A stretch of DNA of 64,000 nucleotides, from the NCBI RefSeq assembly GCF_041248615.1, contig NZ_CP158426.1. The stretch is one strand, 5' to 3'. The position numbers and the translations under genes were made by a program. Within the stretch, counting starts at the first letter, position 1. Every line of letters starts with the position of its first letter. Under the pieces are notes generated by a model. That model was not told the origin of the DNA. It did not search any database and saw only the letters and a list, made by a program, of their open reading frames with translations. Shown here piece by piece: positions 26,656 through 27,123 of the stretch. This DNA comes from Escherichia coli. Lineage in GTDB: Bacteria; Pseudomonadota; Gammaproteobacteria; Enterobacterales; Enterobacteriaceae.

Positions 26656-26843
26656 AATTGTTGTCTCTTTGATTATGTACAATCATATGTACAAAGAAAA
26701 ATTCATGCCGCTGATTGTACATTTTGGAGGTATCAGAGCATAGCAGAACATGATCAGTAGGTGTATTTGTAGCCAAAGAACATTTGTACATGCAGCAATC
26801 TTTGTTCTATTGACACTGTTTATTCATACAGTTAAAAATAACA

Positions 26844-26859
26844 CTGTATACAAACACAG
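26844..26859. promoter_or_regulatory. LexA (SOS) box CTGTATACAAACACAG upstream of dinI-like gene
   Basis: Matches CTGT-N8-ACAG consensus, 16 bp upstream of the ATG at 26875. Confidence 0.7.
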
Positions 26860-26874
26860 TGTAGAGGGATTTTT

Positions 26875-27123
26875 ATGCGTATTGAGATCTGCATAGCCAA
26901 AGAGAAAATGACTAAAATGCCAAAAGGCTCTGTACCTGCTCTACAACAGGAAATGTCTCGCCGTATCAGAAAACGATATGACGATGTGGAGGTTATAGTA
27001 AAATCCGCCAGTAATGACGGACTGACCATTTTAAGAGCCGTAGATAAAGAAAACGCTCAGAAGTTCATACAGGAAACGCTGCAGGAAGTCTGGGAAACTG
27101 CTGATGACTGGTTTTTTCACTAA
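26875..27123 (+). CDS. DinI-family damage-inducible protein
   Basis: 82 aa [11 protein letters not shown]...[17 protein letters not shown] resembles DinI (MRIEVTIAK...ETWESADDWF) as recalled; preceded by a LexA box. Confidence 0.8.

Follow-up and report, generated by a model that had tools for sequence, protein, structure and literature searches.

The 64,000-nucleotide stretch of Escherichia coli DNA analysed here (contig NZ_CP158426.1, hereafter the window) carries prfC, the gene for RF3 (528 aa), on the minus strand at 25069-26655, annotated in RefSeq as an intact prfC and adjoined on its far side by osmY, as in K-12. Upstream of prfC lies an 82-aa dinI-like gene on the plus strand (26875-27123), which belongs to PF06183 and is labelled 'DinI-like family protein' in RefSeq. 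The interval between the two genes holds four copies of the hexamer TGTACA and a predicted sigma-70 promoter overlapped by two LexA-type operators, and a putative intrinsic terminator follows the dinI-like gene. Based on the structure of the prfC junction and on comparisons with free phages and complete genomes, we propose, with a probability of roughly 85%, that 26594-27229 represents the attR end of a prfC-integrating lambdoid prophage, a type known from phage cdtI and from Stx1a and Stx2c phages, equipped with a dinI moron predicted to be under LexA control. Such an attR end of a known prophage family is of an ordinary, previously described kind, and as the prfC integration site, LexA-controlled dinI homologues in Salmonella prophages and the RefSeq label are all precedented, the finding is small as a discovery. 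It does correct how the feature is to be classed, namely as a prophage attR and not as an islet.

An attachment site inside prfC

The junction was defined by a three-way alignment of attR in the window, attB in O104:H4 2011C-3493, a strain without the insert, and attL in NZ_LT599825.1, where it lies beside int. The only block common to the three sites is a 14-bp core, GGGTGAGAAATAAT, at 26594-26607, which marks the attR crossover region, and the flanks of this core swap partners among attR, attB and attL, as site-specific recombination predicts. On the prfC strand the core reads ATTATTTCTCACCC, i.e. codons 17-21 (Ile-Ile-Ser-His-Pro) at the start of the GTPase P-loop, and it is invariant in 23 distinct attL/attP sequences. 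In O104:H4 2011C-3493 yjjG abuts prfC and similarity to the window ends at 26607. This insert-free strain does not have the sequence in front of prfC, as a comparison of the kind proposed by the first-pass annotation shows, and that annotation's placement of the dinI homologue in non-K-12 DNA holds.

The prfC gene of the window is a hybrid, host-derived up to the att core and with codons 1-16 (26608-26655, minus strand) supplied by the phage across the att junction. These codons are part of a phage-borne mimic of the prfC 5' end (26608-26674, minus strand), which includes the start codon and a purine-rich ribosome-binding region, and which is present with the same sequence in the phages cdtI and 2H10; in these free phages it forms a 23-codon mini open reading frame (ORF). 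From residue 8 on, the hybrid RF3 does not differ from native PrfC; before that, MTSLLAA (7 residues) takes the place of MTLSPYLQ (8). Between phage and host, the nine codons for EVAKRRTFA show 8 synonymous and 0 non-synonymous differences, and because all eight nucleotide differences are synonymous, the phage copy has been kept as coding sequence.

The origin of the adjoining DNA is apparent from the free phage genomes. In cdtI (NC_009514, a circular record) and 2H10 (NC_049950) the int-attP-dinI block is contiguous and nearly identical to the prophage arms, running from the int start through four TGTACA copies, about 175 bp, the core, the prfC mimic, four further TGTACA copies and a dual-LexA promoter to dinI. 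Because this int-to-dinI order is contiguous in free phages, the region upstream of prfC in the window represents one arm of the phage attP. In addition, prfC in the lysogen would be expressed from phage DNA, since its start codon, ribosome-binding site and whole upstream region are supplied by the phage. Of 5426 complete E. coli genomes, 683 contain at least 80% of the 267-bp phage-specific segment (26608-26874), which in every one of them falls under a prfC annotation, and prophage genes adjoin it in all carriers inspected. RF3 would thus be a phage-host hybrid expressed from phage DNA in about one eighth of complete E. coli genomes.

Within the window alone, yjjG is not adjacent to prfC, and the first-pass annotation had described an islet that replaces the K-12 neighbour of prfC. 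Taken literally, a small non-phage islet would have replaced yjjG, and the TGTACA copies would be native regulatory sites of prfC. The layout beyond the window, read from the E. coli NRZ14408 record NZ_LT599825.1, which is 100% identical to the window, speaks against this. There, prfC is followed by the dinI-like gene, a gene with a sigma-70-region-4-like helix-turn-helix (HTH) and a YadA-like adhesin gene in two pieces. The C-terminal piece comes first and is separated from the N-terminal one by a complete Mu-like prophage, which encodes a DDE transposase, Gam, Mor and a myovirus tail and has a frameshifted invertase. A lambda-like region for tail, head, lysis and Q/nin functions and a CI/Cro-type immunity region come next. 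The series ends with the tyrosine integrase gene, a prfC 5' fragment of 69 bp, and yjjG-rimI-holD, all three intact. The yjjG gene is intact about 89 kb from prfC, past int and attL, and because yjjG-rimI-holD is preserved beyond a lambdoid prophage integrated in prfC, yjjG has been displaced, not replaced. Together with the att core alignment, the absence of the sequence upstream of prfC in the strain without the insert, the prophage genes next to the segment in all sampled carriers and the contiguity of the same DNA with int in free phages, this refutes a non-phage islet, to which we give practically no weight. Regarding the order of events, the lambdoid prophage entered prfC first, and the Mu-like phage and insertion sequence (IS) elements arrived later.

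A prophage at this position is in agreement with previous work. The integrases of the cdtI phage and of SXT cluster together and target prfC (PMC8138268), and it is documented that both the cdtI phage and SXT/R391 elements insert there (PMC8138268, PMC2786100, PMC5812530); for cdtI, the integration is given in PMC8138268 as cited there from Asakura 2007. Stx1a and Stx2c phages integrate at prfC as well (PMC10132054). The closest relatives are cdtI (NC_009514 / AB285204) and 2H10, in which the core, the prfC 5' mimic and all eight TGTACA copies are identical to those of the prophage, and all three integrate at prfC (PMC8138268). The dual-LexA promoter is also identical in 2H10, whereas cdtI differs at two positions flanking the second box. 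In contrast, mosaicism affects the dinI coding allele and all that lies beyond it: dinI is followed by cdtABC in cdtI, but here by the sigma-like HTH gene and the YadA-like adhesin gene split by the Mu-like prophage. SXT/R391 are conjugative elements, not phages, and are without a dinI gene at the junction. SXT likewise supplies a new 5' end and promoter for prfC, as Hochhut & Waldor reportedly found in 1999.

A variation on the same junction is found in E. coli PEC422 (piece coordinates 20001-22518), where another prophage, of myovirus type, adjoins this attR arm, which shows that phage types exchange the att/int module in a mosaic fashion. In PEC422 a hypothetical cargo gene (437 aa) is inserted between the attR arm and a frameshifted dinI-like gene.

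TGTACA repeats in the attachment-site arms

The phage DNA next to the prfC mimic, i.e. the P arm of the attachment site, contains four copies of (A/T)TGTACA(A/T) at 26675-26792, with the hexamers starting at 26676, 26688, 26716 and 26785. The first-pass annotation had listed four TGTACA palindromes upstream of prfC without assigning them a role; the number is right, the start is 26676 and not 26686 (off by 10), and the copies are not peculiar to the prfC region, as they represent a repeated motif of both phage attachment-site arms. Four further copies are located in the P' arm, no more than 60 bp from the int start codon, and each arm holds one pair of direct repeats 12 bp apart. Across the whole window TGTACA occurs at chance level, with 11 copies observed vs 10.4 expected, and in whole-window shuffles 0 of 300 exceeded two copies within 115 bp. 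When the local AT-rich region was shuffled, 1 of 20,000 permutations gave four TGTACA, and any 6-mer reached four in 0.8%. With eight copies TGTACA is the most repeated 6-mer of attP.

The motif is also maintained where its surroundings change. The P-arm copies are identical in cdtI, 2H10 and NCCP 15734 although nearby positions are substituted, and among 23 distinct P'-arm sequences variation affects 0 of 24 hexamer columns vs 51 of 206 other columns (Fisher p=0.0017). An IMG/VR scan with Int, which returned relatives of 97-100% identity only, served this analysis of P'-arm conservation, not that of deep divergence, and no Int between 95% and 46% identity was present in the phage collection. 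Int itself, 99.5% identical to the cdtI Int, combines a catalytic domain (PF00589, E=3.8e-17) with the Arm-DNA-bind_3 domain PF13356 (E=1.9e-16) and PF22022 (E=1.3e-7).

More distant comparisons were provided by orthologous prophages in Salmonella (Int 85% identical), Pantoea (83%), Xenorhabdus (65%) and Serratia (61%). In 4/4 of them a prfC 5' fragment and the core AT(T/A)AT(T/C)TCNCACCC precede int, and three to four TGTACA copies are kept within about 85 bp of the int start and at comparable spacings from it, with the rest of the arm unalignable. The genes rimI/holD adjoin int in Salmonella, Xenorhabdus and Serratia, which places these three prophages at the chromosomal site used in E. coli, and the Pantoea contig has a different upstream gene. 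Because the prfC fragment and the core position precede int in all four orthologues, the prfC integration module appears to be used across Enterobacterales. Salmonella phage SPN3UB, with an Int of 46% identity, has an attP without the prfC-type core and carries TGGACA in two clusters before int.

As the motif is present in both arms, invariant amid drift, tracks Int across genera and is altered when Int diverges, the TGTACA repeats are most likely arm-type sites of the integrase. The overall architecture resembles lambda attP, in which a core is likewise placed between arms with repeated short motifs, int lies beside the P' arm and Int has a separate arm-binding domain. However, lambda uses an asymmetric arm consensus at 2+3 sites, whereas here palindromic TGTACA is found in 4+4 copies, and the prophage attP of about 430 bp has its core, unlike lambda, inside a protein-coding gene that the phage repairs. 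TGTACA as the arm-type site of prfC-targeting (IntSXT-cluster) integrases, conserved from E. coli to Serratia and Xenorhabdus, may be new.

Alternatively, the hexamers may be operators of another protein, such as an excisionase/recombination directionality factor (RDF), a phage regulator or a host factor, that controls transcription of int, prfC or dinI. TGTACA is a perfect palindrome, the 12-bp-spaced direct repeats in each arm are reminiscent of lambda Xis sites, and the last P'-arm copy abuts the int ribosome-binding site. Moreover, two P-arm copies overlap the best candidate for a prfC promoter, albeit a weak one (TTTTCT-17-CATAAT, 8/12 matches). Nevertheless, Xis-type sites are normally confined to one arm while TGTACA occupies both, the motif follows Int orthologues down to 61% identity and becomes TGGACA with the 46%-identical Int, and Int possesses a dedicated arm-binding domain. 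Furthermore, no xis gene was identified in the prophage, the immediate neighbour of int being a CHAT-domain gene. We consider operators of another protein unlikely, though they merit some weight next to the arm-site assignment, and the two roles are not mutually exclusive because Int bound at arm sites can also autoregulate. A speculative extension is that Int on the TGTACA sites that overlap the only candidate prfC promoter might couple RF3 expression to the prophage state.

The int-upstream region of SPN3UB also includes a perfect CTGT-N8-ACAG match (CTGTACATGCAAACAG, piece coordinates ~1895-1910), positioned between the two TGGACA clusters.

The dinI-like gene and its promoter

The product of the dinI-like gene is a member of the DinI family. 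It matches PF06183 with 69.9 bits (cut-off 24.2, E=2.3e-19) over profile positions 1-63 of 63 and the structures PDB 1GHH/7YWA with E=5e-13. As a single-domain protein it aligns end to end with K-12 DinI at 46% identity over the full length, including the conserved C-terminal LQExWExADDWF helix, an acidic helix that aligns with ILQETWESADDWF; in the DinI family this helix mimics DNA and makes the contact with RecA. RecA binding and modulation of the RecA co-protease are predicted from this similarity.

The gene is preceded by the best promoter-like match of the region (10/12), a sigma-70 promoter at 26810-26839 on the plus strand with a -35 element TTGACA at 26810-26815 and an A/T-rich -10 element at 26833-26839. 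Two LexA-type operators are superimposed on it. Operator 1, CACTGTTTATTCATACAGTT (26814-26833; 16-mer CTGTTTATTCATACAG at 26816-26831), directly follows the -35 TTGACA and fills the promoter spacer, while operator 2, CACTGTATACAAACACAGTG (26842-26861; 16-mer CTGTATACAAACACAG at 26844-26859), begins a few bp past the -10 element, covers the predicted start of transcription and leaves 15 bp to the ATG. The first-pass annotation had recognized the latter box in front of a DinI-family ORF, which the domain match bears out; the second, better box at 26816-26831 was absent from it. CTGT-N8-ACAG occurs only three times in the window, and two of these matches are 12 bp apart in the dinI promoter. In an approximate LexA weight matrix built from E. 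coli operators (training range of the HI-like, i.e. heterology-index-like, score 2.3-11.8), operators 1 and 2 rank first and second among 63,981 window positions; their HI-like scores, 4.97 and 7.64, fall within the training range. A third LexA-like site, CTGTATACATACTCAG at 27175-27194, scores an HI-like 14.8 and is probably non-functional, since this value falls outside the operator range and the 3' segment is found in only 22 genomes.

Six dinI-like promoters were compared, four of them at prfC and the other two beside dusA (O157:H7) and yecD. Across these integration sites, homology starts exactly at the -35 TTGACA and extends through both boxes to the ATG. Operator 2 is invariant in 6/6 promoters, and operator 1 keeps CTG...CAG in 6/6 with a variable centre. 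The two sites accordingly resemble LexA operators in sequence, position and conservation, and LexA binding and SOS inducibility are predicted. The shared 65-bp dual-LexA promoter emerges as a portable module of prophage dinI-like genes at different integration sites and may be new; this module and the TGTACA arm motif are the only points that we did not find stated in the literature.

The chromosomal dinI of K-12 (b1061) is of the same family and length, has the same C-terminal acidic helix, and likewise carries a LexA box just upstream of the ribosome-binding site. It differs in the identity of only 46%, in its genomic context and in having one box (ACCTGTATAAATAACCAGTA), as opposed to the two perfect CTGT-N8-ACAG boxes here. 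The prophages Gifsy-1/-2/-3 of Salmonella provide a second parallel, as their dinI homologues are also prophage-borne and situated behind a LexA box close to the ATG, and are induced by DNA damage (PMC3121763), by 5- to 23-fold (PMC8072944).

A further protein may bear on the operators. The lambdoid prophage encodes, outside the window, a 108-aa protein that consists of a LexA DNA-binding domain only (WP_000210159.1; NZ_LT599825.1 4616407-4616733, minus strand; piece coordinates 16408-16734). It matches PF01726 with E=2.9e-19 and is 43% identical to LexA residues 1-86; its recognition helix retains S39, N41, A42 and E45 but has V instead of E44, and there is no cleavage site and no S24 domain. 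That the twin LexA operators are read by this phage-encoded protein besides host LexA is a speculative and rather improbable extension. If true, an uncleavable LexA mimic expressed in lytic growth could, once host LexA has been destroyed, shut off the dinI-like gene again and perhaps also SOS genes of the host.

The 3' end of the dinI transcript

A 9-bp GC-rich stem with a U-rich tail at 27191-27229 on the plus strand is the putative intrinsic terminator of the dinI-like transcript; the RNA fold of 27121-27235 has a z-score of -2.0. Between the dinI stop codon and this hairpin, 70 bp downstream, no plus-strand ORF of at least 20 aa is present.

This bears on the question of whether the gene heads a Gifsy-type antirepressor operon under LexA control (dinI-gfoA/gftA-irsA), an arrangement that goes with a non-cleavable repressor and that would make the LexA boxes the switch for prophage induction. 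The operons of Gifsy-1/2/3 indeed begin with a LexA box and a dinI homologue and include a small GUG-start antirepressor (PMC3121763), and the promoter layout is similar, with the LexA box about 15-19 bp before the ATG (PMC8072944). However, the dinI-like gene here is monocistronic with two strong boxes, in contrast to the single box of Gifsy, and the gap before the terminator holds no candidate antirepressor ORF of the above size. In cdtI the next gene is the convergent cdtC. In addition, the repressor of the prophage has HTH and Peptidase_S24 domains, i.e. it is a cleavable CI-type repressor, which implies direct cleavage mediated by activated RecA (RecA*). Because of these domains, induction of the prophage probably follows the lambda route, not an antirepressor route. 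We rejected the antirepressor operon on account of the missing downstream ORF and the CI/S24-type repressor, and consider it very unlikely.

Another conceivable role of the 3' untranslated region (UTR), prompted by PMC10907235, is that it yields a DinR-like, Hfq-dependent small RNA repressing ftsZ, as in Klebsiella. The UTR does include UUCUCUCC, an 8-nt complement of the ftsZ Shine-Dalgarno sequence GGAGAGAA. Yet in duplexes with the K-12 ftsZ leader the UTR gains no more energy than shuffled UTRs do (p=0.14 with the complete UTR, 0.62 with its single-stranded part), the UTR has no Rfam match, and, present in only 22 genomes and different from those of cdtI and 2H10, it is not conserved. A DinR-like small RNA was rejected on these grounds as highly improbable.

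Proposed mechanism

We propose that the prophage and its dinI moron operate as follows. A heterobivalent tyrosine integrase would recombine the phage attP with the 14-bp core in prfC codons 17-21, with the N-terminal domain of Int binding the TGTACA arm sites and assembling the intasome. Through the replacement prfC start (16 codons), ribosome-binding site and upstream region that the phage carries, RF3 would remain functional in the lysogen. In the undamaged cell, LexA dimers on both operators would block RNA polymerase at the strong TTGACA promoter, because the operators occupy the spacer and the start site of the promoter. Upon DNA damage, LexA self-cleavage stimulated by RecA* would free the dinI promoter, and RecA co-protease activity would likewise cleave the prophage's own CI-type S24 repressor. 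The DinI-like protein is then expected to bind RecA filaments via its acidic C-terminal helix and to modulate the co-protease towards UmuD, LexA and possibly the phage CI.

Several points count against parts of this interpretation. Neither a tool scan nor a relaxed scan revealed a convincing minus-strand sigma-70 promoter for the hybrid prfC. Palindromes such as TGTACA are more often the targets of dimeric regulators than lambda-type arm sites. The deep conservation of TGTACA covers the P' arm, the P arm having been compared among close E. coli relatives only, and the LexA scores derive from the approximate matrix described above. Finally, when dinI was removed from Gifsy prophages by non-polar deletion, their induction did not change measurably (PMC3121763), which casts doubt on a benefit of the dinI moron to the phage.

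Neighbouring genes

Between the dinI-like gene and the HTH gene, a small ORF on the minus strand (27300-27425) encodes a strongly hydrophobic product (MVIIRTGCLYMKITKAAFIFALSVWSVAVICLLLFVLIVLG) without a Pfam match; it could be a small membrane peptide, a toxin, or nothing. The HTH gene itself (27507-27962, minus strand) specifies a 151-aa protein with a sigma-70 region-4-like HTH (PF08281, E=2.4e-7), annotated as 'sigma factor-like helix-turn-helix DNA-binding protein', and adjoins dinI-like genes in about 180 E. coli genomes. At the opposite end of the lambdoid prophage, directly beside int, lies the gene for the CHAT-domain protein (710 aa; minus strand; piece coordinates 27425-29557). It corresponds to orf33 in phage cdtI and may be a defence or cargo gene.

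The Mu-like prophage extends from position 28402 to the window end, with its other end at about 4581590 of NZ_LT599825.1, and interrupts the YadA-like adhesin gene carried by the lambdoid prophage. A direct repeat, TCTTC(A), borders the Mu-like prophage on both sides, and GCGATAAATG-type repeats are found near its ends. Its invertase gene (28479-29179, minus strand) is frameshifted and annotated as a pseudogene, and beside it, in opposite orientation, lies an alternative tail-fibre C-terminal ORF (29122-29595, plus strand). Because the invertase is frameshifted and the alternative tail-fibre ORF is oppositely oriented, the invertible host-range segment of the Mu-like prophage is probably locked.

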